64,000 nucleotides of DNA from Pseudomonadota bacterium (GCA_034722015.1 JAYENI010000088.1:30574-94573), one strand, 5' to 3'. Positions 25,438-61,472 are shown, counted from the stretch's first letter. A program made the numbers and translations. Notes: generated from the letters alone by a model not told the origin.

Positions 25438-25642
25438 CTTTACGTGAGAGCGGAATCGGTAGTTTGAGGCCGTCGAGGGTGGTCGGGTATCGCGGCCTGC
25501 CTGGGCACGTACGGAGCCGTGAACGCGGGGCCCGCGCGCAGGTGCGGTTTTCAACGGGAATATTTTGTGCCTGGCAAGTATACGACGATGACAGGAGGTG
25601 TCGCGAGCGGCGGGCCTGGCCAGATGACGGGGCGGTCTGTCC

Positions 25643-27862: not shown

Positions 27863-27970
27863 GGTCTGCTCAGTTTCGGGTGTTACGGGCTGTCGTCATA
27901 CAGTGGTTCCCGGATCGTCGAACGGCGCGGGCAGGATTCGTTCCCGAACCACCGCTCGCGTCGGCGTTTC

Positions 27971-45526: not shown

Positions 45527-46534
45527 CTACACACCGTAGTAGTCCCGGTACCATTCGACGAATCTCCGAACGCCCGTTTCTACCGGCGTTCTCGGTTTGT
45601 AGCCGACATCGTGAACCAGATCCGAAACATCGGCATAGGTGTCTGGTACGTCGCCGGGCTGGAGCGGAAGCAGGTTTTGCACGGCCTTGCTCCCCAGACA
45701 ATCCTCCAGCACCTCAATGTAGTGCCTCAATTCCACGGGCTGGTTGTTGCCGATGTTGTACAGTCGCCACGGAGCCATACTGGTGGCGGAATCGGGCGCG
45801 TCACCGTTCCAGTCGGGGTTGGGCTCGGGGATCGAATCCAGGGTTCGAATAACACCCTCGACGATATCGTCTATATAGGTAAAGTCCCTGCGGTGGTTCC
45901 CGTAGTTGAAGACATCGATGGGTTCACCAGCGAGGATCCTGGCGGTAAACAGGAACAGCGCCATGTCCGGTCGGCCCCAGGGTCCGTAGACGGTAAAGAA
46001 CCTCAGTCCAGTGGTCGGAATTCGGTAAAGGTGGCTGTATACGTGCGCCATCAGCTCATTGGCCTTCTTGCTCGCGGCATACAGGCTGAGGGGATGATCT
46101 ACGTTGTCGTGAACGGAAAACGGCATGTGCGTGTTGGCGCCGTAGACCGAACTGCTCGAGGCATAGACCAGGTGCTCCACCTGGTGGTTTCGGCAGCCTT
46201 CGAGCACGTGGAGGAAGCCAACCAGGTTGCTGTCCACGTAAGCGTGCGGATTTTCGATTGAATATCGGACACCCGCCTGAGCGGCCAGGTTGACCACACG
46301 CTGCGGCTCATGGGCCGTGAACACCCGCTCGATGGCTGTGCGGTCCTCCAGGCTGGCGCGGACGTCGGTAAACGTCTCGTAGGCCCGGGTGCGCTCTAGT
46401 CGGGCCTCCTTGATTCGAATATCGTAGTAGTCGTTGAGATTGTCGATTCCAACAACCTCGTCCCCGCGCTCCAGGAGCCTGAGGGACAGTGCCGAACCGA
46501 TGAAACCCGCAGATCCCGTCACAAGTACCTTCAT
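45527..46534 (-). CDS. NAD-dependent epimerase, UDP-glucuronate 4-epimerase-like (extended SDR)
   Basis: [16 protein letters not shown] Rossmann motif, YAASK catalytic motif, about 335 aa, similar to the Cap1J/LpsL/WbpP group. Confidence 0.8.
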
Positions 46535-46950
46535 ATCCGCTCCCTGTTGCAATTGTCGGTTATTCACGCCAGCGTACAGGCGGGTGGCTATCGTACCAAA
46601 CCGGGTGGTTTCGGGTTCGGAGCTCGGGTACTAGAGTAGGGTGCCAGGGGGCAGAGTCTCGGGTACTGGGGGCAGAGTGTGGCGACAAACTGACGGACTG
46701 ATGCGTCGCAGCCACAATTGTGAGAAGATACGGGGAAACGAGAAATGGGAGTCTCGGCAACTCCCTGGCCGGGGCTAGAATCGAAGAACCCGAGTGATTC
46801 CAAAAGGTTAGTTTCACCAGGCGCCATTGTGAAAGTGCCCGGGACTCAAGGTTCCCGACGCGCTGCCACGATTGATCGATGTCACGCGATTTTGTCGACC
46901 TGGTGCGCATTAGTTAAGGTTGCGAGTGGTAAACTTGCCGATATTTCTGT

Positions 46951-48312
46951 ATGAGAAATAATGCCCGGGGCCGGAAATTGCGCACGATATGGTCCACACG
47001 GTTCATGAACAGCAGGGAACAAAGTATGGGTATTCTCAGTTTATTGCAGAGCAGTCGCGGAGAAGCTTACGGGGTCGCAGGTATTTCAATTCCTGACCGG
47101 TTGAAGAATCTGGCTCCTGCTTCCCTTGCGGCCACGCTAATCACCGTTCTTGCTCCTTCGCTGGTCTGGGCGGAGGCTTGGGAACTCGAACCCGAGTTCA
47201 GTATTGGTGGTAATTACAACACCAATTTCCGGCTGTCGACGACGGATCCCGACGAAGTCGGGACCGGGCGAGTCGCCGGTGCGCTCAAGTTCAGCCGTCT
47301 CACCGAGTCCTTCGAGCTTGCGGGACTTGCGCGACTGGATTTCGTCGGTTTCGTCGGGGATACCGACAGACTGTCCAACACGGGCAATCAGTTGTTCGGG
47401 TTCGAGTCGAAGAAAAAATTCGAACGCTCCAATATCGGTCTTGACGCGTTGTGGAAGCGTGACACGGTACTCAGGAGCATCAGGGTGGTGGGAGACCCCG
47501 ACAACCCGGCCATTGAGCCTGACCAGTCGGTTGACGACAACATCGTGAACGAGAACATTCGTCGCAACGCGATCGATGTTCGCCTCCCGTACAAGTATGA
47601 TCTCACGGAACGAGATAGATTGGGCGCGAGGTTGCGGTTTAATACTACCCTCTATGAGGAGAACGATTTTCTGGATGATTACCGGCAAGGTTCGCTGAGG
47701 CTCGATTACAACCACGAACTGACGGAAAAGGACAATATTATCGCCCTGTTCCAGACATCGCGATTCGACTCCGACAGCGGGCGCACGACGGATAACTACG
47801 AACTGCAGGCCGGATACCGGTACGCCTTTTCGGAGACGACGAGCGCCGGATTTACCGCGGGCGGGCGCTATACGGTCTTCGACAACCCCGGTTCCGGGGA
47901 TGACGGCACCAATACAGGTTTTGTGGCCCGGTTGCAGGCCTCGAAGATTACGGGTAAGGCGCGGTACGATGTCAGGCTTGAGAGAAACCTCTCCCCCAGT
48001 GGTGTTGGCGATCTGGTAGAGACCGATGAACTGAACGCCAACATGAGCTACCAGCTCCAAGAGAGATGGACTTTCGCGATTAGGTCACGATTGTTCGAGA
48101 ACGAAAATATCGACAACCCCGAGTCGGGCAGCAACCGGCGGTTCTTTTCGCTGCTTCCCGTTTTGTCGTATCGGTTTACGCCAGACTGGCGCGTGGAAAC
48201 GGCCTATCGGTATCTGAGACAGAAGCGGTTCAGCGAACCGACCAGCGCCGACAGCCACACGGTGTTCCTTAATGTGCGATGGACGAAAGTTACGCCGATC
48301 GATACGCTTTAA
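46951..48312 (+). CDS. outer-membrane beta-barrel protein, PEP-CTERM/EPS-locus-associated type (TIGR03016-like)
   Basis: Signal peptide (AATLITVLAPSLVWA), alternating beta-strand pattern, aromatic-rich C-terminus; the first gene of the polysaccharide locus; exact start uncertain (46951 to 47026). Confidence 0.55.
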   Translation: MRNNARGRKLRTIWSTRFMNSREQSMGILSLLQSSRGEAYGVAGISIPDRLKNLAPASLAATLITVLAPSLVWAEAWELEPEFSIGGNYNTNFRLSTTDPDEVGTGRVAGALKFSRLTESFELAGLARLDFVGFVGDTDRLSNTGNQLFGFESKKKFERSNIGLDALWKRDTVLRSIRVVGDPDNPAIEPDQSVDDNIVNENIRRNAIDVRLPYKYDLTERDRLGARLRFNTTLYEENDFLDDYRQGSLRLDYNHELTEKDNIIALFQTSRFDSDSGRTTDNYELQAGYRYAFSETTSAGFTAGGRYTVFDNPGSGDDGTNTGFVARLQASKITGKARYDVRLERNLSPSGVGDLVETDELNANMSYQLQERWTFAIRSRLFENENIDNPESGSNRRFFSLLPVLSYRFTPDWRVETAYRYLRQKRFSEPTSADSHTVFLNVRWTKVTPIDTL

Positions 48313-48475
48313 GCTGGACGCTGCCCCCCAGGGTGGAGTCAGTCGTTCGGGGGGCCAGCCCTCAGGACGTGTCTCGAAGGGATATGACATAACACCCGGA
48401 GGCATGGCTTTTGCCGATGGTTGGAAAAATTAGGTGACTCCTTACCATTTCTCGGGTGACGAACGCAGGTAACAA

Positions 48476-50248
48476 ATGGGAAAGCAGGATCGCCAGGCGG
48501 GGTACGAGTTACGAGAGTATGTCGGCATACTACGGCGCAGAAAGCGGGAAATTTTCCTGCCTGCCGCAGGCATACTTTTGCTGGCGGTGGTCGTAGCATT
48601 TATGTTGCCCGTCGTTTACCGGGCCCCGGTAACCATCCTGATCGAGAGCCAGGACGTCCCGGAGACCTTTGTCGCCGCGACAATGCGTGAAGAATTGTCG
48701 GAGCAGATGCAGAGTGCCATGTTGCGCGTGCTGGACCGGGACACGTTGCTTGGAATTGTCGAGTCCAACAATCTTTTCCTCGACGAGACAGACGAGCTGC
48801 TGCCGGCGCAACTGGCCGGGATGTTGCGCAAATCCATCGGGATGGAGATCGCACAGTTCCAGGCGGTGAAATCTGAAGATACCGCATCGGCCACGATGGC
48901 GATCCAGATCTACGCTGATCTCGATGAACCGGTCGCCGCGGCCGCTGTATCAAACGAAGTTGCGAGCCTGTTTCTCAGTGAAGACCGTGCCAAGCGCAAC
49001 GAGGAAGCGGAATCGGTCTATAATTTCCTGCAGGCCGAGGCCGAAAAGCTAAACACGGTCATTGAGGAACTGGAGCGGAAACTTGCGACTTTCAAGGTTG
49101 GAAACATCAACCAGCTTCCGGAACTCAAGGACTTCAACATGCGCCTCTATGAGCAGACAGGGAACAAACTGGAGCGCACGGAAGAGGAAATTCGTTCTCT
49201 GGAGGACAGAAAACTCAATCTGGAATCCCAGATGGCCGTCACGAATCCATACGGCACCCTGTACGCGGAGCCTGGCAAGACCCTGCTTTCCGGTCCGGAG
49301 CGTCTGCGCACTCTGCTGACCGAGTACCTCAGGGTATCTTCCCAATATACCCCCAATCACCCTGACGTCATCAAGCTTCGAAGGGAAATCAATTCACTGG
49401 AAGGCCAGGTGGGTGGCTCGAGCAGGGCGAGTAGCCTGGTCAACAAACTGACAGTGACGCGCGAGCAACTGTCCGAACTAAAACAGAAATACACCAGAGA
49501 ACATCCCGACATCGTGAAGCTGAACAACAGTATTCCTTTGCTTGAAAGGGAATTGCGGGAATTTACCGAGGCTCAGGGCATGGCTGGAGGCGGAGTGGCG
49601 AGCCCGACAAATCCTGCATATGTCTCGCTGAAAACACAGCTTGATACCATTAGTGCCAATCTCAGGGCGAAGTACGAACAGAAAACGAGTCTTCAGTCCA
49701 AGCTGAACGACTACGAGGAACGCCTCAGCCAGACGCCGATTGTCGAGCGGGAATATCTTTCGTTGAGCCGTGACTACGATAATGCGATGGGTAAATATAA
49801 GGAAATCAAGGACAAGCAGCTCGAAGCGCAATTGGCGCTGGGCCTTGAGGGTGACTCGAAAGCACAGCGATTGACCCTGGTTCGGAGGGCCAATGTGCCA
49901 ATAGCGCCGTACAGCCCAAATCGGCCGGCATTGTTTGCAATCGGATTGGTGCTGGGTCTGATTGTCGGAGTGGGCGTCGCGACTATCGCCGAATACAACG
50001 ACGAGACCGTCAGAGGCAAGCGGGGTGTTTTGGATGTCTTTGGTGCGCCTCCCCTGGCGACGATTCCCTACATTGAGAACAGTGTCGACGTCATAGCAAG
50101 GTCCAGACGAACCAGAATGATCCTGGTTGTTGCTGGAGTGGTTTTCACGGCGGTGCTTGCCTATGCCTACTACTTGTGGTCTTCACAGGCTGTCGTAGAA
50201 AAAGCGGATAGTACATCAGGGAATGCGTATAGTTCCCTGCGTGGCTAG
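48476..50248 (+). CDS. polysaccharide chain-length determinant / co-polymerase protein (Wzz-like, PEP-CTERM-locus subfamily-like) with a long coiled-coil periplasmic domain
   Basis: N-terminal TM after YELREYVGILRRRK, extensive coiled-coil, second TM near the C-terminus (LFAIGLVLGLIVGVGVATIA). Confidence 0.75.
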   Translation: MGKQDRQAGYELREYVGILRRRKREIFLPAAGILLLAVVVAFMLPVVYRAPVTILIESQDVPETFVAATMREELSEQMQSAMLRVLDRDTLLGIVESNNLFLDETDELLPAQLAGMLRKSIGMEIAQFQAVKSEDTASATMAIQIYADLDEPVAAAAVSNEVASLFLSEDRAKRNEEAESVYNFLQAEAEKLNTVIEELERKLATFKVGNINQLPELKDFNMRLYEQTGNKLERTEEEIRSLEDRKLNLESQMAVTNPYGTLYAEPGKTLLSGPERLRTLLTEYLRVSSQYTPNHPDVIKLRREINSLEGQVGGSSRASSLVNKLTVTREQLSELKQKYTREHPDIVKLNNSIPLLERELREFTEAQGMAGGGVASPTNPAYVSLKTQLDTISANLRAKYEQKTSLQSKLNDYEERLSQTPIVEREYLSLSRDYDNAMGKYKEIKDKQLEAQLALGLEGDSKAQRLTLVRRANVPIAPYSPNRPALFAIGLVLGLIVGVGVATIAEYNDETVRGKRGVLDVFGAPPLATIPYIENSVDVIARSRRTRMILVVAGVVFTAVLAYAYYLWSSQAVVEKADSTSGNAYSSLRG

Positions 50249-50553
50249 ATATCCATGAAAACAGCGCTTGTATAGCGACAAAACGACGAAAGAGGCATCC
50301 CTTTCTTTGGGGTGGATATAGGATTCTGGTACGTTCGGTGCGGTTGTGCCGGATTGAGGATGTTTGATGGCCATAGTGTCCACCGAATATGCAACTGTTT
50401 CGTCCCCGTGTATGACGTGATAGGAAAGACATAGGGCAGGATCGGCGGTAGCAATTGCGGGTGTAGCGCGTCCCGGTTTCAATAAACCTGTTGTGCAATT
50501 TATCAGGTTTATACTCGGTGGAATTGACGATCAAGGTGTAACTGGAAAGTATT

Positions 50554-51360
50554 ATGGACAGCATTTCAAAAGCAATGTCGCTCGCGAAGAGTAACATCAA
50601 GCGATCTCCAGTGGCGCTGAGAGAGGAAGAAGAAAAGAATATACGATACTCCAAGACCCGGAACTACAGCATTCGCGAAGATGTTCTAAAAGAGAATCGT
50701 TTGCTTAGCGAGTCCTCGGACAAGAGGGTCGTGGACGCATTCCGTTTGTTGCGAACACGTGTGATGAGTCGGATGCAGCAAAACCAGTGGAATACGCTTG
50801 GAATAACAAGCTGTAGGCCGAATGAGGGGAAATCCCTGACCGCGATCAATCTCGCGATAAGTATCGCGATGCGCCACAACTACACAGTCATGATGGTTGA
50901 CACTGATCTGAGACGACCCAGCATCCACTCGTTTTTTGGTATTACTCCGAAATACGGGCTCGCAGATTACCTTATCAGGGACGTGCCAATCGAAGAGGTC
51001 CTGGTTCACCCGGGGATTGAACGTTTTGTCATGCTCCCAAGTGGGGGATCTCTTGATGCGCAGTATCATTCTTCGGAGTATCTTGCTTCGCCGAAGATGG
51101 CGCAACTGGTCGACGAACTCAAGACGCGTTACCCCTCCCGGTTGGTTCTCTTCGATCTTCCTCCCATCCTGATTGGTGATGACGTCGTTGCGTTTTCCAC
51201 CTATCTGGACGCGATCATGCTGGTCGTCGAGGACGGAAAGACACGTGAGGGGGAACTGGCTCACGCGCTTGATCTTGTTTCCGAGGTAGAGGTCATCGGC
51301 ACTGTTCTTAACAAGTCGGATGAACTGACGCAGGATAATCACTACCAGGGTTATTACTAG
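50554..51360 (+). CDS. tyrosine-kinase-like P-loop ATPase of the CpsD/CapB/EpsG family (separate cytoplasmic partner of the Wzz-like protein)
   Basis: Degenerate Walker A (PNEGKSLTAINLAISIA), Walker A' (VMMVDTDLRRP), Walker B (LVLFDLPP); C-terminal Tyr-rich tail YQGYY. Confidence 0.7.
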   Translation: MDSISKAMSLAKSNIKRSPVALREEEEKNIRYSKTRNYSIREDVLKENRLLSESSDKRVVDAFRLLRTRVMSRMQQNQWNTLGITSCRPNEGKSLTAINLAISIAMRHNYTVMMVDTDLRRPSIHSFFGITPKYGLADYLIRDVPIEEVLVHPGIERFVMLPSGGSLDAQYHSSEYLASPKMAQLVDELKTRYPSRLVLFDLPPILIGDDVVAFSTYLDAIMLVVEDGKTREGELAHALDLVSEVEVIGTVLNKSDELTQDNHYQGYY

Positions 51361-51559
51361 TGTTGACCGTCCCCTTTCGGTACGCTCAACAGTAGCAGAA
51401 CCCTTGTACCTGGACATGGATCGATGTTCTGCAATCTGGAAGGAAGCAAGGACTCATGAATCACCGTATCCGGAAGGGATATGCGTGAGGCGCCATAGAC
51501 GAATTGACAGGGTCTAGCATTCCCCTTCCGCTCCGATCCCGAACACCCGGTAGAAAAAT

Positions 51560-52333
51560 ATGAAAGCCGTTTTGCTGGCTGGCGGTCTTGGCACGCGCCT
51601 GTCCGAGGAAACTTCGATTCGCCCGAAACCCATGGTAGAAATAGGCGGTAAGCCTATCCTGTGGCATATCATGAAGATCTACCATGGTCACGGAATCAAG
51701 GAATTCATTGTGTGCTGTGGTTACAAGGGCTTCGTTATCAAGGAGTACTTTGCGAACTACAGGCTGTATATGTCAGACGTGACATTCGATATTCGGGCGA
51801 ACGAGATGAAAATCCATCAGAGCGATGCCGAGGATTGGAAAGTGACCCTGGTCGACACCGGTGTAGACACAATGACGGGTGGAAGGATGCGGCGGGTGCA
51901 AGACTACCTTGGTGACGAAACATTCCTGATGACCTACGGTGACGGTGTCGGTGATATCGATATTGGAAAACTGATTTCGTTTCACCGGGAGCAAGGTACG
52001 CTCGCGACATTGACTGCGGTACAGCCGTCCGGGAGATTCGGTGCCTTTACACTCACGGATGATCAGAAAAAGATCGACCATTTCCGGGAGAAGCCAAGAG
52101 GTGACAATGCGTGGATCAACGGCGGGTATTTCGTCCTGGAGCCGGAAGTCCTCGACTACATCGAGGGTGATGATACCGTCTGGGAAAGAGATCCTATGGA
52201 ACGACTTGCTTCCGAGGGGCGACTATCCGCCTATCAGCATCACGGTTTCTGGCATCCGATGGACACACTGCGGGACAGGGACAATCTGGAATCAATCTGG
52301 GAAAGTCGCGATGCACCCTGGAAAAACTGGTAA
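51560..52333 (+). CDS. rfbF: glucose-1-phosphate cytidylyltransferase (CDP-glucose pyrophosphorylase)
   Basis: MKAVLLAGGLGTRL...PKPMVEIGGKPILWHIM, 257 aa, RfbF/DdhA family. Confidence 0.9.
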   Translation: MKAVLLAGGLGTRLSEETSIRPKPMVEIGGKPILWHIMKIYHGHGIKEFIVCCGYKGFVIKEYFANYRLYMSDVTFDIRANEMKIHQSDAEDWKVTLVDTGVDTMTGGRMRRVQDYLGDETFLMTYGDGVGDIDIGKLISFHREQGTLATLTAVQPSGRFGAFTLTDDQKKIDHFREKPRGDNAWINGGYFVLEPEVLDYIEGDDTVWERDPMERLASEGRLSAYQHHGFWHPMDTLRDRDNLESIWESRDAPWKNW

Positions 52334-52338
52334 CGGCA

Positions 52339-53532
52339 GTGACGGATTTCCTGGTTATCGGGGGCGGGATTATCGGCATCAGTATTGCCCGGGAACTGAA
52401 ACGAACCTACGCCGACGCATCGGTTGAAGTTGTAGAGAAGGAGTCCTCGGGAGGCGAGCATGCGAGTGGCCGCAACAGTGGTGTACTGCACGCAGGATTC
52501 TACTATACGGCAGACAGTCTGAAGGCCCGTTTTACAAGAGACGGCAACCGGGAACTCACGGAGTATTGTGAAAGTAGAAAAATCCCGCTGAACAAATGCG
52601 GGAAGCTTGTCGTGGCGAAGAACGAGACCGAAGACGTGATGCTGGACGAGTTGATGGTACGCGGCAGAAAAAATGGTGTTCTGCTCGATGAGGTGACGGC
52701 CGAGGAGGCGAAGGAGATCGAACCGAGGGTGAAGACTTACCGTCGCGCCCTGTTTTCGCCCACGACATCATCTGCTGATCCCCGGCAGGTACTTGCCGCC
52801 ATGGAGGCGGATGCCAAACGGGAAGGAATTCGGATTAGCTACTCGGTGAGCTTTGTCTCCAGGACGCGGGACGGGATTCGGGTGTCTGACGGCGTACGTA
52901 ATGTAGGATATGTCGTCAATGCGGCAGGCTTGTATGCGGACCGTATCGGTAAGGAGTTCGGATTTTCCGAAAACTACACGATTCTTCCCTTCAAGGGACT
53001 CTATCTGAGTTCGGATGAGCCTCCTGGGGCGTTTCGAACGAATATTTATCCAGTTCCTGACCTCAGAAATCCGTTTCTTGGCGTGCATTTTACGGTGAAG
53101 GCAGACGGACGTGTAAAGATCGGGCCCACGGCAATACCTGCCTTGTGGCGGGAACAGTACAGTGGATTCGAAAATTTCAATTCGGGAGAGGCATTCGAGA
53201 TGGCATTGCGTTCCGCGAGCCTGCTATTTTCCTCGGGTTTCGGATACTCGGGTCTTGCACTGTCGGAAGTCAGGAAATATTCAAGACGGTACATGGTGAA
53301 ACTTGCGGGAGAGCTTGCGACCGGTATCGAAGTTTCCGCCTTCCGGAAATGGGCGAGACCTGGAATCAGGGCCCAGCTTCTGGACACGCGGACGCGACGT
53401 TTGGAGATGGATTTCGTGCTCGAAGGAGACTCGCGATCGATGCATGTGCTGAACGCGGTGTCCCCAGGCTGGACGTGTTCCTTGCCGTTTTCCGCCCATG
53501 TCGTCAAGGCAATCGATAAAAAACTGGGATAA
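52339..53532 (+). CDS. FAD-dependent oxidoreductase of the L-2-hydroxyglutarate oxidase (LhgO/YgaF) / glycerol-3-phosphate-oxidase-like family
   Basis: N-terminal dinucleotide motif VIGGGIIGISIA..E, 397 aa; embedded between rfbF and the sugar epimerase genes. Confidence 0.75.
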   Translation: MTDFLVIGGGIIGISIARELKRTYADASVEVVEKESSGGEHASGRNSGVLHAGFYYTADSLKARFTRDGNRELTEYCESRKIPLNKCGKLVVAKNETEDVMLDELMVRGRKNGVLLDEVTAEEAKEIEPRVKTYRRALFSPTTSSADPRQVLAAMEADAKREGIRISYSVSFVSRTRDGIRVSDGVRNVGYVVNAAGLYADRIGKEFGFSENYTILPFKGLYLSSDEPPGAFRTNIYPVPDLRNPFLGVHFTVKADGRVKIGPTAIPALWREQYSGFENFNSGEAFEMALRSASLLFSSGFGYSGLALSEVRKYSRRYMVKLAGELATGIEVSAFRKWARPGIRAQLLDTRTRRLEMDFVLEGDSRSMHVLNAVSPGWTCSLPFSAHVVKAIDKKLG

Positions 53533-53551
53533 GAAAAAGAGGTAGTCGCTG

Positions 53552-54595
53552 GTGAATATCGTTATAACGGGGAACATGGGTTACATTGGTCCGACTCTGG
53601 TGAGAATGCTTCTGTCATCCGAACCAGATGCAAACATTTATGGGATCGATTCCGGCTTTTTTGCGCATTGCCTGACCGGAGTCAGATCGTTTCCGGAACA
53701 CAACCTAAAGGCGCAGTTCTTCCGGGACATACGGGATATCGACGAGACCCTGCTGCAAGGCATGGATGGCGTTATTCATCTGGCAGCGATTTCAAACGAC
53801 CCAATGGGAAAAGCCTTCGAGGAAGTGACGGCAGACGTCAATTACCGCGCAAGTGTCAAACTGGCAAAGTTGGCAAGGAAGGCTGGTGTTGGGCGGTTTG
53901 TATTTGCATCGAGTTGTAGTGTCTACGGTTATGCGGAGGGCGAAGCACGGGATGAGCGTTCCGAGCTGAATCCTCTTACGGCGTATGCCCGTTCCAAGAT
54001 AGCCACGGAAAAGGACATCGAGCCGCTGGCGAGTGAGGAATTCGTTATCACCAGCCTGCGATTCCCCACTGCGTGCGGCATGAGCGACAGGCTTCGCCTG
54101 GATCTGGTTCTCAATGATTTCGTCGCCTCTGCTGTCTCAACAGGAAAGATCAGGATCCTTAGCGACGGAACGCCGTGGAGACCATTGATCGATATAAAGG
54201 ATATGAGCCGTTCGATGAGCTGGGCGGTTGAACGCAATCCCGAAGACGGGGGGAATTTTCTTGCGGTGAACGTGGGACGCACCGAGTGGAACTATCAGGT
54301 CAGGGACGTAGCCGAGGCCGTAAGGGCGGAAATGCCACACGTGGAGATTGAAGTCAACAAGGATGCCATGCCTGACAAGCGATCCTATCAGGTTGACTTT
54401 GGCATGTATGCGGGTCTCGCACCGGACCACCTGCCGGAAGTGGATCTCGCCCAGTCGATTCGGGAGCTCAGGAAAGGACTGACCGATATGGGGTTCGACA
54501 ACGGTGAGTTTCGAAATTCGGACTTCATGCGACTGAAGGTACTTACGGGCCTGCGTGAGCGCGGGATGCTGGATGAGGAATTACGTTGGCAATAG
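53552..54595 (+). CDS. NAD-dependent epimerase/dehydratase-family protein (extended SDR, nucleotide-sugar modifying)
   Basis: ITGNMGYIG Rossmann motif, YARSK catalytic YxxxK; 347 aa. Confidence 0.75.
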   Translation: MNIVITGNMGYIGPTLVRMLLSSEPDANIYGIDSGFFAHCLTGVRSFPEHNLKAQFFRDIRDIDETLLQGMDGVIHLAAISNDPMGKAFEEVTADVNYRASVKLAKLARKAGVGRFVFASSCSVYGYAEGEARDERSELNPLTAYARSKIATEKDIEPLASEEFVITSLRFPTACGMSDRLRLDLVLNDFVASAVSTGKIRILSDGTPWRPLIDIKDMSRSMSWAVERNPEDGGNFLAVNVGRTEWNYQVRDVAEAVRAEMPHVEIEVNKDAMPDKRSYQVDFGMYAGLAPDHLPEVDLAQSIRELRKGLTDMGFDNGEFRNSDFMRLKVLTGLRERGMLDEELRWQ

Positions 54596-54722
54596 CACAG
54601 TCGATTTTGGTGTTCCGGTTTTCCGATGTTGGTTGAGGCGTGTTTCTTTTCTGGGCAAGGCCCCATCTGACCCGCCAATGTGTCGTGAGTGCGGGAGAAA
54701 TCCGGACTCAGTGAGATAAGCA

Positions 54723-55253
54723 ATGAAATTTACAGAGACCCGATTGCCCGGCGCATACGTCGTGGAGCCCGAACCGCTCGTTGATGAGAGGGGGTTCTTC
54801 GCCCGTGCCTGGTGCAGCAGCGAATTCGAGAAGAATGGGCTGGTGAACCGGTCGGTACAGGCGAACATGTCGAGCACCAGGAAAAAGGGAACGATGAGGG
54901 GACTGCATCATCAGGTCCCTCCTCATGCCGAGACCAAGTTTTTTCGGTGTACCAGAGGCAGTCTGTTCGATGTCATCGTGGACCTGCGCAAGGATTCCCC
55001 CACCTTCCGGCAATGGACGGGATTGGAATTGTCCGCGGAAAATCACGTGGCCATCTATGTGCCGGAAGGATTCGCGCACGGTTATCTTACGCTGGAAGAC
55101 GAAACAGACGCCTATTACCAGGTTTCAGAGTTCTATACGCCGGGCGCCGAACGCGGTTTCAGATATGATGACCCGGCTTTCGGCATAGATTGGCCGATAG
55201 AACCCCGTGTCGTGTCGGACAAGGACCTGTCATGGGAACCCTTCGGGTGTTGA
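54723..55253 (+). CDS. dTDP-4-dehydrorhamnose 3,5-epimerase-family (RmlC-like cupin) sugar-nucleotide epimerase
   Basis: RGFFARAW....RGLHHQ...K.FRCTRGSLFDVIVDLR...YVPEGFAHGY, typical RmlC motifs; 176 aa. Confidence 0.85.
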   Translation: MKFTETRLPGAYVVEPEPLVDERGFFARAWCSSEFEKNGLVNRSVQANMSSTRKKGTMRGLHHQVPPHAETKFFRCTRGSLFDVIVDLRKDSPTFRQWTGLELSAENHVAIYVPEGFAHGYLTLEDETDAYYQVSEFYTPGAERGFRYDDPAFGIDWPIEPRVVSDKDLSWEPFGC

Positions 55254-55303
55254 GGCGACGAGCCCTCGATGGAGATCCGCATAAATCATGATGGAATGGA
55301 AGG

Positions 55304-56140
55304 ATGTCTAGCGAAAATGACTTGAATGACGTAGCGGTAATCAGACCTCCGAAGAGCTGGGAGCTTCTCGATTTCAGGGAGTTGCTCGCCTATCGCGATC
55401 TTTTTTACTTTCTGGTGTGGAGGGACATCAAGGTTCTCTACGCCCAGACGGTACTGGGATTCGCATGGGCCATACTTAACCCGCTGATACAAATCATCAT
55501 TTTCAGCGTAATTTTCGGAAAGGTTGCGCGCCTGGATACGGGAGGAATTCCGTATGTTCTTTTCTCTACGGTTGCCATCATCCCGTGGACCTATATGTCT
55601 GAGGCAATGTCGGCGTCAAGCCAGAGCCTGGTCACCGGGCAGAATATGCTGGGAAAGGTCTATTTTCCCAGATTGATTTTTCCGCTGACCCCGGTTCTGG
55701 CAAAGCTGGTTGATTTCAGTATTTCTCTGTTGCTCCTCGTTGGCGTGATGATCTACTACAAGATTACCCCGTCGATCAATCTTGTCTACCTGCCCGTATT
55801 TGTGCTGCTGATGATGGCCATTCCCGCCGGTGTCGGGTTGTGGATGTCGTCTCTGGCCATTCGATTCAGGGATGTCAAGTTCGCCATGCCGTTTGTCATG
55901 CGCATGCTGATCTATACCGCCCCGATTCTCTATTCCGCGGAGAAGATCCCGGAGCAGTACCGGTTGCTTTACTCTCTCAACCCGATCGTTGGTGTGATCG
56001 AAGGTTATCGGGCCTGCCTGCTCGGGACGGAAATGCAGTGGGAGTACATCCTTCCGGGGGTGGTGACGGGGGTATTGTTACTGGTAAGCGGTGCAATGTA
56101 TTTCCGGCGCATGGAACGTGTGTTCGTCGACGTCATTTGA
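55304..56140 (+). CDS. wzm: ABC-2 type polysaccharide/O-antigen export permease
   Basis: 6-TM ABC-2 permease, about 278 aa, paired with the downstream ATPase. Confidence 0.85.
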   Translation: MSSENDLNDVAVIRPPKSWELLDFRELLAYRDLFYFLVWRDIKVLYAQTVLGFAWAILNPLIQIIIFSVIFGKVARLDTGGIPYVLFSTVAIIPWTYMSEAMSASSQSLVTGQNMLGKVYFPRLIFPLTPVLAKLVDFSISLLLLVGVMIYYKITPSINLVYLPVFVLLMMAIPAGVGLWMSSLAIRFRDVKFAMPFVMRMLIYTAPILYSAEKIPEQYRLLYSLNPIVGVIEGYRACLLGTEMQWEYILPGVVTGVLLLVSGAMYFRRMERVFVDVI

Positions 56141-56197
56141 TCGTAACAGGAGGCGGCGGTTTCCCGGAACGCGGGGCGTCGCACGTTTGGTAAGAAG

Positions 56198-57520
56198 ATG
56201 AAAAAAGATCTCGCCATCGAAGTTGAAAATATCAGCAAGATCTACCGAATCGGAACGCGCGAAAAGTCGAATGACAACTTCGCCGGTGCGATGTTCGATT
56301 ATGTGAGAAGTCCGCTTGAGAATTTCAGAAAATACAAATCATTGTATGATTTCTCAGACGTCGAACAGTCGACCGGGGAAGATGAAGACCCGTCGGTGCT
56401 TTGGGCGTTGCGGGACGTCTCGTTCGAAATTCCCAGAGGAGAGGTCGTCGGTGTGATCGGTACAAATGGTGCCGGCAAGTCTACGCTACTGAAGATCCTT
56501 TCCAGGATTACACCGCCGACGCGTGGACAGGTCGGTATCCGCGGCAGGGTGAGCAGCCTTCTGGAGGTTGGCACCGGTTTTCACCAGGAATTGACGGGAC
56601 GCGAAAACGTCTACCTTAACGGCACTATTCTCGGTATGCGCAAGCGCGAGGTCGACAGGAAGTTCGACGAAATCGTCGACTTCTCCGGAGTGGACAAGTT
56701 CCTGGATACCCCGGTGAAGCGCTATTCGAGCGGCATGCGGGTACGTCTGGCGTTTGCGGTCGCAGCGCATCTCGAGCCGGAGATATTGATCATCGACGAA
56801 GTGCTCGCGGTGGGCGATGCCACTTTTCAGCAGAAATGCATGAACAAGATGCAGGACGTTGGTCAGCAGGGACGCACAGTGCTGTTCGTGTCTCACAACA
56901 TGGCTGCCGTTACGAGACTCTGTCCGCGGGCGATCCTGCTCGATCAAGGCGGTCTGGTCGAGGACGGGCCTTCGAACAGGGTCGTAGAGCACTATCTCAA
57001 GACCGGGCTGGGAACGACACCCGTGAGGGCGTGGGACGATTTGACGAACGCGCCGGGAGATGACGTCGTCAGGTTACGCCGTATCAACGTATCCACCGAG
57101 CAGGGGGAGTCTCCGGACAGCGTCGATATCAGGCGGCCGTTGGGATTGCGGATGGAATACCGAGTGCTGAAGGAAGGAAAGGTACTGTTTCCGTACTTCA
57201 TCGTCACCAATGAACAGGGCGTCATGGTATTTTCCACGATCGACCAGGATCCCGAATGGCTGGGGCGTCCGCGTCCCCCGGGGGATTACGTCAGTACGGC
57301 CTGGATTCCGGGAAATCTGCTCAGCGAAGGAATTTTCTACGTCAACCCCGTGATGCGGGCACCGGAGCGCAGAATCAGGCACTTCAACGAGAAGGACGCG
57401 GTGGCTTTTAACATCATCGATCCGGCTGAGGGCGACTCCTCGCGCGGGCACTGGACCGGACGGCTCAGCGGCGTTGTCCGCCCCATGCTCAGATGGGAAA
57501 CTGAATTTACGCCAGCCTAG
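56198..57520 (+). CDS. wzt: polysaccharide/O-antigen ABC transporter ATP-binding protein with a C-terminal substrate-binding (Wzt_C-like) domain
   Basis: Walker A GTNGAGKST, signature YSSGMRVRLAF, Walker B ILIIDE; about 190-aa extra C-terminal beta-rich domain. Confidence 0.85.
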   Translation: MKKDLAIEVENISKIYRIGTREKSNDNFAGAMFDYVRSPLENFRKYKSLYDFSDVEQSTGEDEDPSVLWALRDVSFEIPRGEVVGVIGTNGAGKSTLLKILSRITPPTRGQVGIRGRVSSLLEVGTGFHQELTGRENVYLNGTILGMRKREVDRKFDEIVDFSGVDKFLDTPVKRYSSGMRVRLAFAVAAHLEPEILIIDEVLAVGDATFQQKCMNKMQDVGQQGRTVLFVSHNMAAVTRLCPRAILLDQGGLVEDGPSNRVVEHYLKTGLGTTPVRAWDDLTNAPGDDVVRLRRINVSTEQGESPDSVDIRRPLGLRMEYRVLKEGKVLFPYFIVTNEQGVMVFSTIDQDPEWLGRPRPPGDYVSTAWIPGNLLSEGIFYVNPVMRAPERRIRHFNEKDAVAFNIIDPAEGDSSRGHWTGRLSGVVRPMLRWETEFTPA

Positions 57521-57610: not shown

Positions 57611-58081
57611 TCACATGTGGTGACTGAACAAACCTTCCCTAGCGTTGCCCATCAGGGCGCGAAAATTATCCGCGCTTACCTTGACAAGGGATTCGTGATC
57701 ACCTGCCTCGAAATAGACTTCCTGCTCTCGCCCCAGATGTGAGTCCCAGAGTGCCTGTATCCCGTAGGCGTCCCCGACTGGAGGTGCGGCACCGCGGGCG
57801 CAATCCGGGAACAGGTCGCTGAGTTCGTCCTCGGTTGCCATGCCCACGATGTTGTGAATTTCCTCACCGACCTTTTCAAGATCGAGGTGATAGTCGGCGG
57901 GAATCACGACCATGGCGTAGTGGTCGTGCGTCTTTACGACGACGGCCTTTGCCAGCCGGTCACCGGGAACGTGTGCCTCCTCGGCCGACTCCAGACTCGA
58001 CCCGGTACGCGTGTGCGACACAAGTTCGAAAGGAATCCCGTTCGAATTCAGGTAGGTGTTCAGTTTGGTTGCGATTGCCAT
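57611..58081 (-). CDS. YbaK/ProX-family aminoacyl-tRNA deacylase domain protein
   Basis: 156 aa from MAIATKLNTYLNSNGIPFELVSH with the YbaK-like fold signature (..KAVVVK....VVIPADYHLDL.K). Confidence 0.65.
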   Translation of the reverse strand: MAIATKLNTYLNSNGIPFELVSHTRTGSSLESAEEAHVPGDRLAKAVVVKTHDHYAMVVIPADYHLDLEKVGEEIHNIVGMATEDELSDLFPDCARGAAPPVGDAYGIQALWDSHLGREQEVYFEAGDHESLVKVSADNFRALMGNAREGLFSHHM

Positions 58082-58248
58082 TTGTCGCCCTCGGTTCCGG
58101 AAAATGGTTTCCAATGAAATCATGGACTGGATCCGGGGGGCTTGCAAGCGGAGTCGCCGGGTTGTCTGATTGATGTCAACGCAGGGGCGGATCGGCGGCC
58201 GCGAGAACGGCCAGGCCCCCTGTCGGCGGGCTCTGCCAAGCATGCGAT

Positions 58249-58965
58249 ATGATGCGCTCCATGGACAGAAATGAATCGCTTATCCGGGTAAGAGACCTGC
58301 ACCGGGCCTATCGCGAGGGTGATCGGTCCCGTGTTGTGCTGGACGGTATCAACCTGGATGTGCCGCAGGGGGAAATCGTCGGATTGCTGGGTCGTAGTGG
58401 ATCCGGCAAGTCGACCCTGCTGAATCTCCTGGCGGGAATCGACCGTGCCGACCAGGGTGAGGTTTGGATCGCAGGGATCGATCTACAGGGTGGTTCGGAG
58501 CGTCGGCGAACCTTGTTCCGGCGGACCCACATCGGATTTGTCTATCAGTTCTTCAATCTGATTCCCACACTGACCGCCGCTGACAATATCCGTCTTCCGC
58601 TGGAACTCAACGGCGCAGGCACCCGCGAGGCACAGGTACGCGTATATCGATTGCTCGAGTCCGTGGGTCTGGAGGACCGGGGGGGGGCGTTTCCGGATGA
58701 CCTCTCCGGCGGAGAGCAACAGCGTGTCGCCGTCGCGCGCGCACTCGCCCACCGCCCCCCGGTCGTGCTTGCTGACGAGCCGACCGGGAATCTGGACGCC
58801 GAGACCGGAAAGTCGGTCATGGATCTATTGGCCCGGATGGTCGTGGAACACGGCACAACCCTGATTCTGGTGACCCACAGCGCCGCCGTCGCGGGGTTTG
58901 CAGATCGATGCCTGACCCTGGAAGCGGGGCGATTGTCCGGAGACCACGATACTACGGCATGGTGA
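58249..58965 (+). CDS. ABC transporter ATP-binding protein (MacB/LolD/YbbA-type)
   Basis: Walker A GRSGSGKST, signature LSGGEQQRVAVARAL, Walker B VVLADEPTGNLD. Confidence 0.9.
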   Translation: MMRSMDRNESLIRVRDLHRAYREGDRSRVVLDGINLDVPQGEIVGLLGRSGSGKSTLLNLLAGIDRADQGEVWIAGIDLQGGSERRRTLFRRTHIGFVYQFFNLIPTLTAADNIRLPLELNGAGTREAQVRVYRLLESVGLEDRGGAFPDDLSGGEQQRVAVARALAHRPPVVLADEPTGNLDAETGKSVMDLLARMVVEHGTTLILVTHSAAVAGFADRCLTLEAGRLSGDHDTTAW

Positions 58966-61472
58966 ACCGGACCCTTTTGCGAGGTGCGACGGCCTTTCAT
59001 GCGAGGCACCCCTGGCAAGCGGTATTGGCCGTGGTGGCGGTGGCACTGGGTGTTGCCATGGTGGTCGCCGTGGATCTAGCCAATGAGAGCGCCCTTCGGG
59101 CCTTCCGGCTTTCCGCCGAAGCGGTGACGGGAACGGCAACGCATCAGCTGACGTCTCCTCCCGTTGGGATTGCGGAGCACATTTATACGGACCTCCGCCT
59201 GCGTCACGGTTTCAGGCTTAGCGCGCCATTTGTGGAGGGTGCGGCCGCCTATCACGGAGAGACCCTTCGGCTGCTGGGGATCGACCCGCTCGCCGAGGCA
59301 CCCTTCCGGAACTGGCGCTCGTCAGGTGCGGGCGGCGGGGCGTCGCGTCTACTGTCCGAGCCGGACACTGTGCTCATGGCAAGTTTGACCGCAGACCGAA
59401 TGAAGATCTCCGAGGGCGATCAGCTCAACCTCGTCGTGAGCGGGCGTCAGGTGTTGGTCACGGTGGCGGGCATCTTCGAGAATGAAAATCCGCAGGCGAT
59501 CGATGGTGTGATGCTGGCGGACATCGCCACTGCACAGGAGCTGCTCGGCAGTGAAGGCCGAATTGACCGGATCGATCTCATCCTGACCACCGACGACGCG
59601 GACCGTCTTGCCCGATTGCTTTCTCAGGGAATGGTGCTGGAGGCGGCTTCGGCGGGTACGCGCAACATGCTGAACATGACTCGCGCGTTCCACACCAACC
59701 TCTCGGCGATGAGCCTGCTTTCCGTCCTGGTCGGCGGGTTTCTGATCTACAACATGATGACCTTTACGATCCTGCGCCGACGCGCGACCCTGGGGATTCA
59801 GCGCATGCTGGGTGTCACGAGGCGCGAGATCTTTCTGCTCGTGCTGGCAGAGACACTTGCACTGGGCCTGATTGGCTCGCTGTCGGGTGTCGTTCTTGGC
59901 TGGTTTCTGGGTCACGGTCTGCTCCGGCTGGTGGCACGTACGATCAACGACATCTATTTTGCCGTCAACGTGACGTCGCTGAGCTTCGAGCCGTGGTTGC
60001 TGACCAAGGGCATCATCGTCGGCGCCGGCGCCGCGGTACTCGCCGGCCTCGGCCCGGCCATTGAGGCCTCGAGGGCCTCGCCGCTCGAAGTGCGGCGCCG
60101 GTCCTCGCTGGAGAGAAGCGGACATCGCTGGGCCCCCTGGCTCTCGTTGGCGGGATTGCTGGTCTGCGGGGCCGGATATGGTGTATTGCGACTGGTGGAA
60201 AGAGACCTCGGATTCGGCTTCGTCGCACTGTTTCTACTGGTGACAGGTTACGCCATGATGGTTCCCGCTGCGGTCTTGTTGATGCTGCGCGTCGCCGCGC
60301 CGGTGATGGGCGGGCTCACCGGGGTGACCGGGCGTTTCGCCGTGCGGGGTGTCTCCGCGGGCCTCAGCCGCACAGGGCTGGCAATTTCCGCGCTTGTGGT
60401 TGCGACGGCGGCCACCGTCGGTGTGGGAATAATGATCGGGAGTTTCCGCGATTCCGTCTCCGTCTGGCTGCACCAGACGTTGCAGAGCGACATCTATGTG
60501 TCCGTAGACGGGCCCGGATCGGACGCCTTGCTGGATCCTCGGGTCGAGGGGCTGATGCGGGAGGTCCAGGGCGTCGATTCACTGAGTACGGGGAGGGTGG
60601 TGCCGCTTCGTACGGCCTTCGGTGACGTCGATGCGCTGGTACTTGGACCAGGCACACACAGCAGGGACGGATACCGCTTGCTCGGTGACGATATCGAACG
60701 GATCTGGCCCCGGTTAGAGAACGCGGAGGTCGTACTGGTATCCGAGCCCCTGGCCTGGCAACACGGGATCCGGTCGGGCGACACAATCGAATTGCTGGCC
60801 GGCACCGCTGGCCCGCTGCAGGTGCCTGTCGGCGGTGTATTTCGTGACTACAGTTCGAGCAGCGGATTGCTGGTCATGGCCCGTGCGCTGTACGAGCGCT
60901 ACTGGGATGATCCCGGAGTCGCGACGGTGGGGGTCAGGCTGGATCCGGCCGCGGATCCGGACGAACTGGCCGGGCGACTTCGCATGGCCCTGTCGGAAAC
61001 AGGTCAGGACCTGAGGGTGAGTCACGCCGCTGCGATTCGCGAGATGTCACTGGAGGTCTTTGACCGCACGTTTGCCGTGACCCGGGTCTTGAGGTGGTTG
61101 ACCATCGGGGTAGCGGTTGTCGGATTTCTGAGTGCCCTGCTCGCGCTGCAGATTGAGCAGGCCAGGGAACACGCCTTGCTGCGTGCAACCGGGGTCACAC
61201 CCGCAGGGCTGTTTGCGCTGGTCCTGTCCCAGACGGGCATCATGGGCTTGATGGCCGGGCTGCTGGCCCTGCCGCTGGGCGGGTTGATGTCGGTCGTACT
61301 GATTCACGTGATCAACCAGCGCGCGTTCGGCTGGAGCATGGAGACCACAATACCGCCGGAGGTCATACCCGAGGCCCTGGTGCTGTCCCTTGTGGCGGCC
61401 CTGGTCGCCGGGACGCTCCCCGCGTTACGCATGAGCCGGATTCCTCCCGCCTTGGCACTGAGGGAGGAGTAA
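58959..61472 (+). CDS. ABC transporter permease with two FtsX-type 4-TM domains and large periplasmic domains (YbbP/MacB-like)
   Basis: 837 aa; the FtsX topology is duplicated; ATG overlaps the stop of the ATPase gene. Confidence 0.85.
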   Translation: MVNRTLLRGATAFHARHPWQAVLAVVAVALGVAMVVAVDLANESALRAFRLSAEAVTGTATHQLTSPPVGIAEHIYTDLRLRHGFRLSAPFVEGAAAYHGETLRLLGIDPLAEAPFRNWRSSGAGGGASRLLSEPDTVLMASLTADRMKISEGDQLNLVVSGRQVLVTVAGIFENENPQAIDGVMLADIATAQELLGSEGRIDRIDLILTTDDADRLARLLSQGMVLEAASAGTRNMLNMTRAFHTNLSAMSLLSVLVGGFLIYNMMTFTILRRRATLGIQRMLGVTRREIFLLVLAETLALGLIGSLSGVVLGWFLGHGLLRLVARTINDIYFAVNVTSLSFEPWLLTKGIIVGAGAAVLAGLGPAIEASRASPLEVRRRSSLERSGHRWAPWLSLAGLLVCGAGYGVLRLVERDLGFGFVALFLLVTGYAMMVPAAVLLMLRVAAPVMGGLTGVTGRFAVRGVSAGLSRTGLAISALVVATAATVGVGIMIGSFRDSVSVWLHQTLQSDIYVSVDGPGSDALLDPRVEGLMREVQGVDSLSTGRVVPLRTAFGDVDALVLGPGTHSRDGYRLLGDDIERIWPRLENAEVVLVSEPLAWQHGIRSGDTIELLAGTAGPLQVPVGGVFRDYSSSSGLLVMARALYERYWDDPGVATVGVRLDPAADPDELAGRLRMALSETGQDLRVSHAAAIREMSLEVFDRTFAVTRVLRWLTIGVAVVGFLSALLALQIEQAREHALLRATGVTPAGLFALVLSQTGIMGLMAGLLALPLGGLMSVVLIHVINQRAFGWSMETTIPPEVIPEALVLSLVAALVAGTLPALRMSRIPPALALREE

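Follow-up and report, generated by a model that had tools for sequence, protein, structure and literature searches.

What does a polysaccharide island do when it sets a Wzz-type polysaccharide co-polymerase (PCP) and a bacterial tyrosine (BY) kinase beside a Wzm/Wzt ATP-binding cassette (ABC) exporter and a set of cytidine diphosphate (CDP)-sugar genes, with no glycosyltransferase among them? The question is raised by positions 46951-57520 of a 64,000-nucleotide stretch from a Pseudomonadota bacterium (GCA_034722015.1, JAYENI010000088.1:30574-94573), the whole of which is referred to below as the window. The answer that we favour, with slightly better than even confidence, is that the island is an export and rare-sugar module for a cell-surface polysaccharide, acquired horizontally and since kept vertically, in which an alpha-ketoglutarate/L-2-hydroxyglutarate (L-2-HG) shuttle would serve nucleotide-sugar oxidation. 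The pairing of an oxidase with a dehydrogenase on which this answer turns is a new hypothesis, drawn from sequence comparison and from analogy with characterized enzymes. The island appears to be neither an XrtA system nor an O-antigen cluster of the ordinary kind. It is better described as a conserved variant, reduced in content, of a recurring locus that joins an ABC transporter to a PCP, a kinase and an outer-membrane barrel.

The island consists of nine intact open reading frames (ORFs) on the plus strand, spanning 10.6 kb at the coordinates first described, and the identity of each gene was assigned by scoring Pfam and NCBIfam profiles against their curated cut-offs. The GC content of 0.540 lies about seven standard deviations below that of 72 equal-length upstream windows (0.609 +/- 0.010), and GC at third codon positions (GC3) is 0.64 as compared with 0.73 in the flanking genes (Mann-Whitney p = 3.6e-5), while housekeeping genes border the island on both sides, which leaves little weight to the question of glycosyltransferases just beyond the window. 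The lower-GC polysaccharide island proposed in the first-pass annotation is thus borne out, its horizontal acquisition is supported by the dip in GC and GC3, and the profile searches recover both the CDP-sugar branch and the Wzm/Wzt pair that had been predicted. The reported lack of a glycosyltransferase, polymerase, flippase or exosortase also holds: Pfam profiles find none of these, and no outer-membrane polysaccharide export (OPX) gene, either in the island or among the scanned predicted genes of the 64 kb. No sugar transferase was found in the window by Pfam, and no EpsB-type transferase or PEP-CTERM protein in the 64 kb. The AAA ATPase, DRL-type oxidoreductase, C-methyltransferase and sulfotransferase genes known from fuller relatives are missing from the window as well. 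A tblastn search of the window with OPX, DRL, AAA ATPase, family 2 glycosyltransferase and sulfotransferase queries from those relatives returned only E values above 0.1 and no fragments, and this absence of remnant genes argues against recent deletion.

The sugar cassette begins with RfbF, whose product is predicted from family membership to be CDP-glucose. The extended short-chain dehydrogenase/reductase (SDR) encoded two genes downstream was first labelled an epimerase, a label better replaced by candidate Cj1427-like C4-dehydrogenase, as sequence, profile and fold all place it nearest to Cj1427 of Campylobacter jejuni. Cj1427 (6VO6/6VO8) is the nearest solved relative by sequence, with 69.9 bits in a single-sequence comparison, and a profile of the SDR family matches it over its full length at 103.6 bits, 28 bits ahead of the next SDR (75.6). 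In a Foldseek search with the AlphaFold2 (AF2) model of the SDR (pLDDT 83.7), Cj1427 chains occupy ranks 1 to 5. Beyond the generic SDR core, the motifs RLRLDL(V/L)(L/V)NDF and PDKR(S/D)Y are common to both proteins, and the catalytic region of the island protein (SSCSVYG...YxxxK) reads as the epimerase/dehydrogenase type, without the Asp/Glu pair of dehydratases. The dehydrogenase Cj1427 follows a ping-pong mechanism in which NADH stays tightly bound and is re-oxidized by alpha-ketoglutarate to yield L-2-HG; a C3/C5 epimerase and a C4 reductase then act on the 4-keto product (PMC10680097).

The genes that accompany the SDR in other genomes are informative about its product. The SDR family is matched in at least 574 species genomes; 80 genome loci were scored by tblastn, 59 of which extend 3 kb or more to either side of the SDR, and rfbF and rmlC each accompany it in 95% of these 59. 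Of the 80 loci, 36 have a TylC3-type C-methyltransferase (Methyltransf_13/14), which in most cases directly follows the SDR (e.g., L017:8401-9642 and L048:13857-15092, where L numbers denote loci). The substrates of both RmlC-type epimerases and TylC3-type C-methyltransferases are free 4-keto sugar nucleotides. The SDR is expected to yield a 4-keto product, given its near-constant RmlC partner, the frequent C-methyltransferase and the absence of a 4,6-dehydratase. The RmlC-type enzyme of the island matches RmlC structures in the PDB at up to 8e-47. A CDP-3,6-dideoxyhexose (rfbFGH) pathway was considered and rejected, as no 4,6-dehydratase adjoins rfbF; TIGR02622 is not among the hits of the island SDR listed at E <= 0.01, and the resident SDR upstream of the island scores 81.3 against its cut-off of 278.45.

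In the relatives, the position of the C4-reduction step is taken by a DRL-type oxidoreductase, a C-methyltransferase or a second SDR, the first of these lying 3' of rmlC in 44% of the 59 loci. As a separate observation, the placement of the C-methyltransferase next to the SDR implies that Nitrospira, Desulfobacterota and other groups have a hexose with a C-methyl branch and a retained 6-OH. The DRL protein is a 440-aa oxidoreductase (L003:11668-12987 and L089:11603-12925; not in the window) closest to the Brucella DXR-like protein 3UPL (2e-70). DXR-type enzymes rearrange and reduce keto-sugar phosphates, and, given that chemistry, a role of DRL on a CDP-4-keto-hexose could be unusual.

Between rfbF and the SDR, 5 bp downstream of the former and 19 bp upstream of the latter, lies the gene for the LhgO-like flavoprotein. 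This protein matches the L-2-HG dehydrogenase dmL2HGDH (8W75) at 5.5e-52, and all six 2-oxoglutarate ligands of that enzyme (Ser88, His92, Tyr289, Leu299, His302 and Arg393; PMC10726252) are kept within the same local motifs, as S47, H51, Y237, L247, H250 and R344. The ligands are also kept in 29 of 29 cassette-linked homologues, which form two clades of 58-67% and 30-38% identity. Of the genome loci anchored on the SDR, 31% have LhgO as its immediate upstream neighbour; with LhgO as the anchor, 29 of 72 metagenome loci (40%) have the SDR as the next gene downstream. The adjacency spans several phyla and both oxidase clades. As rfbF is directly upstream of LhgO in a mere 18 of 69 such loci, LhgO and the SDR are the tightest pair. 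The adjacent Cj1427-like SDR is proposed as the mechanistic partner of LhgO, a point absent from the first reading of this locus. There is a precedent in Pseudomonas aeruginosa, where WbpB converts 2-ketoglutarate to D-2-hydroxyglutarate (D-2-HG) and loss of the D-2-HG dehydrogenase (D2HGDH) lowers O-antigen synthesis (PMC8651671). Literature searches returned, among the searchable papers, no described link between an L-2-HG oxidase and a sugar-nucleotide pathway and no CDP-glucose C4-dehydrogenase. LhgO-like genes of 60-65% identity with no SDR downstream occur in L094, L101, L105, L107 and about 40 further metagenome loci, and these might reveal whether a housekeeping lhgO was the source of the copies in the cassette.

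Taken together, the genes can be arranged into the following scheme. RfbF would supply CDP-glucose, which the SDR, to judge from its nearest characterized relative, would oxidize at C4 without dehydration by means of a tightly held NAD; on the same grounds, the bound cofactor would be re-oxidized by alpha-ketoglutarate with release of L-2-HG. The LhgO-type flavoenzyme would return L-2-HG to alpha-ketoglutarate, as its substrate ligands, its adjacency to the SDR and the WbpB/D2HGDH precedent suggest, and with such recycling a catalytic amount of alpha-ketoglutarate would suffice and inhibitory L-2-HG would not accumulate. The RmlC-type enzyme may then epimerize C3 and/or C5 of the CDP-4-keto-hexose. 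Once completed, the lipid-linked glycan would be carried across the inner membrane by Wzm/Wzt and through the periplasm and outer membrane by the PCP, the BY-kinase and an 18-stranded barrel. This export would resemble the route of PCP, Class-3 OPX and Wzp porin, with the differences that an ABC transporter would feed it and that the island of this lineage has no OPX gene. The glycosyltransferases, the initiating transferase, any OPX and the C4 reductase would have to be encoded elsewhere in the genome.

Several observations weigh against this scheme. Identity between the SDR and Cj1427 is just about 25%, Foldseek ranks Cj1427 ahead of other extended SDRs by a narrow margin, and the substrate of Cj1427 is GDP-heptose, not CDP-glucose. 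With no C4-reductase in the window the pathway is incomplete as encoded, and with no OPX, glycosyltransferase or initiating transferase there, export depends on genes elsewhere. About two thirds of cassettes lack an LhgO-like gene, and equally similar LhgO-like genes lie outside the cassette in 60% of LhgO-anchored loci; because just about one third of cassettes have the gene, the shuttle would be either dispensable or supplied in trans where it is missing. On the export side, L009 and L023 have an OPX gene, the trio of barrel, co-polymerase and kinase genes, and the cassette, yet lack wzm/wzt in the 10 kb that follow the SDR, and the reverse arrangement, cassette and wzm/wzt without the trio, is found in many phyla, among them Nitrospira, Planctomycetota, Acidobacteriota and other groups. 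It may be, then, that the trio and the ABC transporter do not work together.

These last distributions speak for reading the island as two independent systems, a doubtful but serious possibility, in which the cassette and Wzm/Wzt are O-antigen-like, the trio serves a separate Wzx/Wzy- or XrtA-type exopolysaccharide, and their adjacency reflects co-transfer. Across the genome loci wzm accompanies the SDR in 49%, Wzz in 14% and the outer-membrane protein (OMP) gene in 7%, and the gaps in the trio region (163, 305 and 199 bp) are longer than those within the sugar cassette. Against such a separation, however, the genes from trio to wzt stand colinear and on one strand in seven or more loci of different lineages (the window, L002, L003, L010, L017, L048 and L089), ABC-dependent capsule systems need a PCP and an outer-membrane channel (PMC9603273), and neither the window nor the called genes of L002 and L003 yielded a Wzx/Wzy gene. 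The full order in several gammaproteobacterial metagenome-assembled genomes (MAGs) is short OPX, OMP, Wzz, kinase, (AAA ATPase), rfbF, (lhgO), SDR, rmlC, (DRL), wzm, wzt. The mixture of Wzz/kinase and Wzm/Wzt components that drew attention to the locus is therefore real, but it is a recurring architecture and not an accident of this genome.

A second alternative, which we consider unlikely, concerns the cassette: the SDR would be a plain CDP-hexose 4- or 2-epimerase, and the LhgO-like gene a passenger that detoxifies L-2-HG. The catalytic motif of the SDR is GalE-like, many UDP-hexose 4-epimerases score nearly equally in the fold search, and the distribution of LhgO-like genes, missing from most cassettes and frequent outside them, would suit a passenger. 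Yet the family profile places Cj1427 ahead of the epimerases, and RmlC- and TylC3-type enzymes need a free 4-keto sugar nucleotide for which the cassette has no other source. The adjacency of LhgO and SDR, at 31-40% across several phyla and two ligand-keeping clades, is far above what would be expected of a passenger.

In the export trio, 47026 is the more probable start of the barrel protein, in line with the gene calls on the Logan (L001) and JGI (L086) contigs. An AF2 model built from 12 sequences has 18 strands (pLDDT 77.7, pTM 0.72), and its Foldseek matches are 18-stranded channels, with AlgE giving the best TM-scores (0.51-0.53) among the top 50 PDB hits. AlgE is also the nearest reported structural homologue of Myxococcus EpsX (PMC9601211). 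In the co-polymerase, transmembrane segments predicted by hydropathy near residues 23-57 and 481-507 flank a long helical periplasmic region, and the GNVR score of 24.1 falls just below its cut-off of 27.7. The kinase gene encodes Walker A (ITSCRPNEGKS), Walker A' (VMMVDTDLRRP) and Walker B (LVLFDLPP) motifs and a C-terminal tyrosine cluster (HYQGYY), and matches TIGR01007 at 96.6 bits besides its best match, TIGR03018. These motifs and the two transmembrane segments are those of a BY-kinase with a separate PCP, a PCP-2b-like arrangement. The model in which a PCP, a Class-3 OPX and a Wzp porin act together has been documented for Wzx/Wzy pathways (PMC9603273, PMC12819527).

The first-pass annotation likened the trio to that of PEP-CTERM/exosortase-associated or Wzy-type exopolysaccharide loci and recommended searches with the corresponding TIGRFAMs and with Wzt_C. 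The best NCBIfam matches are indeed TIGR03016, TIGR03007 and TIGR03018, but all fall below the curated cut-offs (32.6/90.85, 198.6/278.85 and 183.6/230.65 bits, respectively), and Wzt_C is weak. The five export genes of the relatives likewise find their best matches in the five XrtA-locus TIGRFAMs, including TIGR03027 (OPX) and TIGR03015 (ATPase), all below cut-off. This one-to-one correspondence is what speaks for a trio that is a true component of an XrtA/PEP-CTERM exosortase system with its remaining genes elsewhere in the genome, an improbable reading given that no score reaches its cut-off, that neither the 64 kb nor the called genes of L002 and L003 yielded an exosortase, an EpsB-type transferase or a PEP-CTERM protein, and that the module is linked instead to wzm/wzt and a CDP-sugar cassette. 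On the strength of the sub-cut-off scores and the absence of an exosortase from the window and from these called genes, the trio is best classed by sequence as a sister of the XrtA export module and not a member of it.

The permease of the ABC transporter has the galactan Wzm/RfbD permease as its best NCBIfam match, and the NCBIfam matches of both Wzm and Wzt are below equivalog cut-offs. Wzt was predicted to end in a carbohydrate-binding domain; a C-terminal extension of about 170 aa is present, however it scores 21.2 bits against the Wzt_C cut-off of 30.4 and has no sequence match in the PDB. A homologue in L003 has a precomputed Wzt_C match, and the extension may be a carbohydrate-binding domain.

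How long the island has been in place can be judged from its closest relatives. A locus with 74-93% amino-acid identity, L086, has the island at the same chromosomal site, again without OPX. For three island genes compared between the two, dN/dS is 0.04-0.14 (0.07 for the co-polymerase and 0.04 for the kinase), comparable to flanking housekeeping genes, and dS is 1.1-1.4 as compared with 0.66-1.09 in those genes. Because the site is shared and dS is similar to or slightly above that of the flank, the acquisition appears not to be recent; it would predate the split between the window and L086, with the genes kept under selection since. A more distant island, in L089 (OMP 45% and SDR 71% identity), comprises OMP, Wzz, kinase, rfbF, a DAO (LhgO-like) gene, SDR, rmlC, DRL, wzm and wzt, with no OPX, and occupies another site about 0.8 kb downstream of tRNA-Ser(GCT) (L089:2884-2976), after lysC and csrA, where its GC of 0.51-0.63 contrasts with 0.67-0.72 in the flank. 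A tRNA gene is a classical site of island integration. The window and L086 have no tRNA nearby, and a tRNA scan of the window found none, and hence no tRNA-linked integration signature of the kind seen in L089.

A short OPX gene lies directly upstream of the more distant OMP homologues in L002, L003, L009, L010, L012, L017, L023 and L058, and is absent from the island in the window, L086 and L089. The occurrence of an OPX-less island at two sites in three lineages indicates a mobile island, and the version in the window is, from its sequence, a reduced and OPX-less but conserved form under purifying selection, not one in decay. A decaying, non-functional remnant of a larger sulfated-polysaccharide locus, stripped of OPX, DRL, glycosyltransferase and sulfotransferase genes that fuller relatives all have beside the same core and the window has not, is very improbable in the face of nine intact genes, housekeeping-like dN/dS at dS above 1, an OPX-less layout kept in three lineages and no pseudogene fragments of the missing genes.

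Beyond wzt the relatives differ among themselves. Glycosyltransferases and sulfotransferases follow it in several gammaproteobacterial MAG loci, and in L017 and L048 the next 6 kb or so holds a sulfotransferase, a DUF4910 protein and others, with no glycosyltransferase. Sulfotransferase genes are several in L003 (15313-20275) and L009 (15153-17093) and single in L017 (14469-15437) and L048 (16428-17504), and DUF4910/M28-like genes also flank fuller relatives of the island. Together these genes suggest sulfated polysaccharides in sediment and groundwater Gammaproteobacteria.

Each turnover of a Cj1427- or WbpB-type dehydrogenase uses alpha-ketoglutarate and yields inhibitory 2-hydroxyglutarate. 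An unlinked D2HGDH answers this need in P. aeruginosa, whereas here, and in roughly a third of several hundred related cassettes spread over many phyla, an L-2-HG oxidase gene adjoins that of the Cj1427-like enzyme; adjacency to LhgO would provide a simple rule for predicting ping-pong dehydrogenases among SDRs. On a bolder and less likely reading than the favoured one, C4 oxidation of CDP-glucose, unfavourable by itself, would be drawn forward by the L-2-HG oxidase, and a widespread route (at least 574 species) would lead to hexoses that are non-deoxy and L-configured or C-methyl-branched. The cassette points to an uncharacterized CDP-hexose pathway. Its core is found in cultured bacteria, among them Pontibacter and Mucilaginibacter species and Thioalkalicoccus limnaeus, and a Methylophilaceae isolate (L020) has the lhgO-like gene as well. 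As for export, an XrtA-like module of PCP, kinase and barrel is repeatedly coupled to Wzm/Wzt, and the OPX-less sub-lineage bears on how Class-3-type translocons are built. That the locus would combine two new arrangements at once, a self-contained alpha-ketoglutarate/L-2-HG shuttle in a nucleotide-sugar pathway and an OPX-free, ABC-fed route through PCP/BY-kinase and barrel, is put forward only tentatively.

Table 1. Features of the island and its surroundings, with positions counted from the first nucleotide of the window.
Feature	Position	Strand	Basis or remarks
Resident SDR gene, UDP-glucuronate 4-epimerase-like sugar-nucleotide 4-epimerase type	45527..46567	-	Probably outside the island
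Intergenic region	46568..46950	.	Between the divergent resident SDR gene and the first island gene
OMP, candidate polysaccharide porin	46951..48312	+	18-stranded beta-barrel; TIGR03016 weak, 32.6 bits
Wzz/PCP co-polymerase	48476..50248	+	PF02706 Wzz 34.2 bits vs cut-off 25.5
Cytoplasmic BY-type tyrosine autokinase, separate gene	50554..51360	+	Walker motifs and Tyr cluster
RfbF, glucose-1-phosphate cytidylyltransferase	51560..52333	+	TIGR02623 444.2 vs 300.25 bits
FAD-dependent L-2-hydroxyglutarate oxidase/dehydrogenase (LhgO/L2HGDH, DAO family)	52339..53532	+	NF008726 302.3 vs 299
Extended SDR, proposed Cj1427-type CDP-glucose C4-dehydrogenase	53552..54595	+	No equivalog match
RmlC-type NDP-4-keto-hexose 3,5-epimerase	54723..55253	+	TIGR01221 178.4 vs 155.75; PF00908 211.8 bits
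Wzm-type ABC-2 permease	55304..56140	+	PF01061 57.5 bits; multiple transmembrane segments
Wzt-type ABC ATPase	56198..57520	+	PF00005 83.8 bits; TagH and Wzt/RfbE best NCBIfam matches
Upstream flank			ffh, rimM, trmD, rplS, glutamine amidotransferase, htpG, hsp15, Nudix hydrolase, divergent 4-epimerase-type SDR
Downstream flank			YbaK-like protein, MacB-type ABC transporter, CrtC-like lipocalin, peroxiredoxins

The resident SDR on the minus strand matches 5U4Q at 8e-143, followed by UDP-GlcA and UDP-GlcNAc 4-epimerases. Its GC3 of 0.72 is flank-like, and it adjoins the island in L086 and is absent from that position in L089. It was considered as the missing C4-reductase and rejected as a 4-epimerase-type homologue of 5U4Q with native GC3 that does not stand beside the island in L089.

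The direct repeats reported upstream of the island are present. Two copies each of a 10-mer, CTCGGGTACT (46623-46632 and 46658-46667), and an 11-mer, GGGGGCAGAGT (46647-46657 and 46668-46678), are interleaved over 46623-46678 in the divergent promoter region, however neither is enriched elsewhere in the window, and they represent a small local duplication with no other support. The duplication could be a regulator site, although comparative support is lacking. Two weak sigma-70-like matches occur in the intergenic region, and consensus scans for promoters and terminators gave nothing above shuffled expectation. An ORF of 116 aa on the minus strand (46560-46910) matches no family and is unlikely to be a real gene. 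A scan of the whole window at Rfam gathering thresholds returned nothing.

Four other features of the window are recorded here. A 617-aa ORF at 26522-28375 (+) has no Pfam/NCBIfam match and an unusually high first-position GC (0.78). A stand-alone protein of 779 aa with AMP-binding and phosphopantetheine-carrier domains is encoded at 23473-25812 (-), with no non-ribosomal peptide synthetase or polyketide synthase partner among the scanned neighbours. Downstream of the island, the YbaK-like editing-domain protein (57611-58243, -) has an N-terminal extension of about 60-80 residues and scores 27.8 against the YbaK/EbsC cut-off of 153, and 58249-62606 (+) encodes a MacB-type ABC ATPase, a fused double FtsX/MacB permease (854 aa) and then a CrtC-like two-lipocalin protein.

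Among known systems, the XrtA/PEP-CTERM set (TIGR03027, 03016, 03007, 03018 and 03015) corresponds to the export genes gene for gene in best matches, but here these are sub-cut-off and coupled to an ABC transporter. As in ABC-dependent O-antigen and group 2 capsule export, an ABC-2 permease is joined to an ATPase with a C-terminal extension, and the PCP and outer-membrane channel parallel KpsE and KpsD. Unlike in the KpsE/KpsD systems, however, the PCP is of XrtA/PCP-2 type with a separate BY-kinase and not PCP-3, and the outer-membrane component is a beta-barrel and not a Wza- or KpsD-type OPX; unlike in ABC-dependent O-antigen and capsule loci, glycosyltransferases and a terminator enzyme are missing and the carbohydrate-binding domain of Wzt is weakly recognizable. 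The Class-3 OPX/barrel translocons of Myxococcus xanthus (EpsY/EpsX and WzaB/WzpB; PMC9601211, PMC9603273, PMC12819527) also have an AlgE-like 18-stranded barrel beside a PCP and a BY-kinase. The fuller relatives come closer still, with an OPX gene of 214-229 aa directly 5' of the barrel gene, which in L003 also matches the EpsY model. The M. xanthus translocons are Wzx/Wzy-dependent, whereas the exporter here is Wzm/Wzt and the OPX gene is absent from the islands of the window, L086 and L089.

The sugar cassette is most like the Cj1427/Cj1430/Cj1428 pathway for capsule heptose in C. jejuni (PMC10680097), in that a Cj1427-related SDR is combined with a cupin-type 3,5-epimerase whose substrate must be a 4-keto sugar nucleotide formed without 4,6-dehydration. 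It differs in its predicted substrate, CDP-glucose as judged from RfbF in place of GDP-D-glycero-D-manno-heptose, in lacking a Cj1428-type C4-reductase in the window, and in having an L-2-HG oxidase directly upstream of the SDR. For the proposed shuttle the likeness is to lipopolysaccharide synthesis in P. aeruginosa (PMC8651671), where the tightly bound NADH of WbpB, a UDP-GlcNAcA 3-dehydrogenase, is re-oxidized by 2-ketoglutarate, which is restored by a 2-hydroxyglutarate dehydrogenase. That system uses D-2-HG, with a GFO/IDH/MocA enzyme and a PCMH-fold D2HGDH, whereas L-2-HG would here link an SDR to a DAAO-fold L2HGDH; and while the wbpB and D2HGDH genes of P. aeruginosa are unlinked, the SDR and oxidase genes of this island abut in one cassette.

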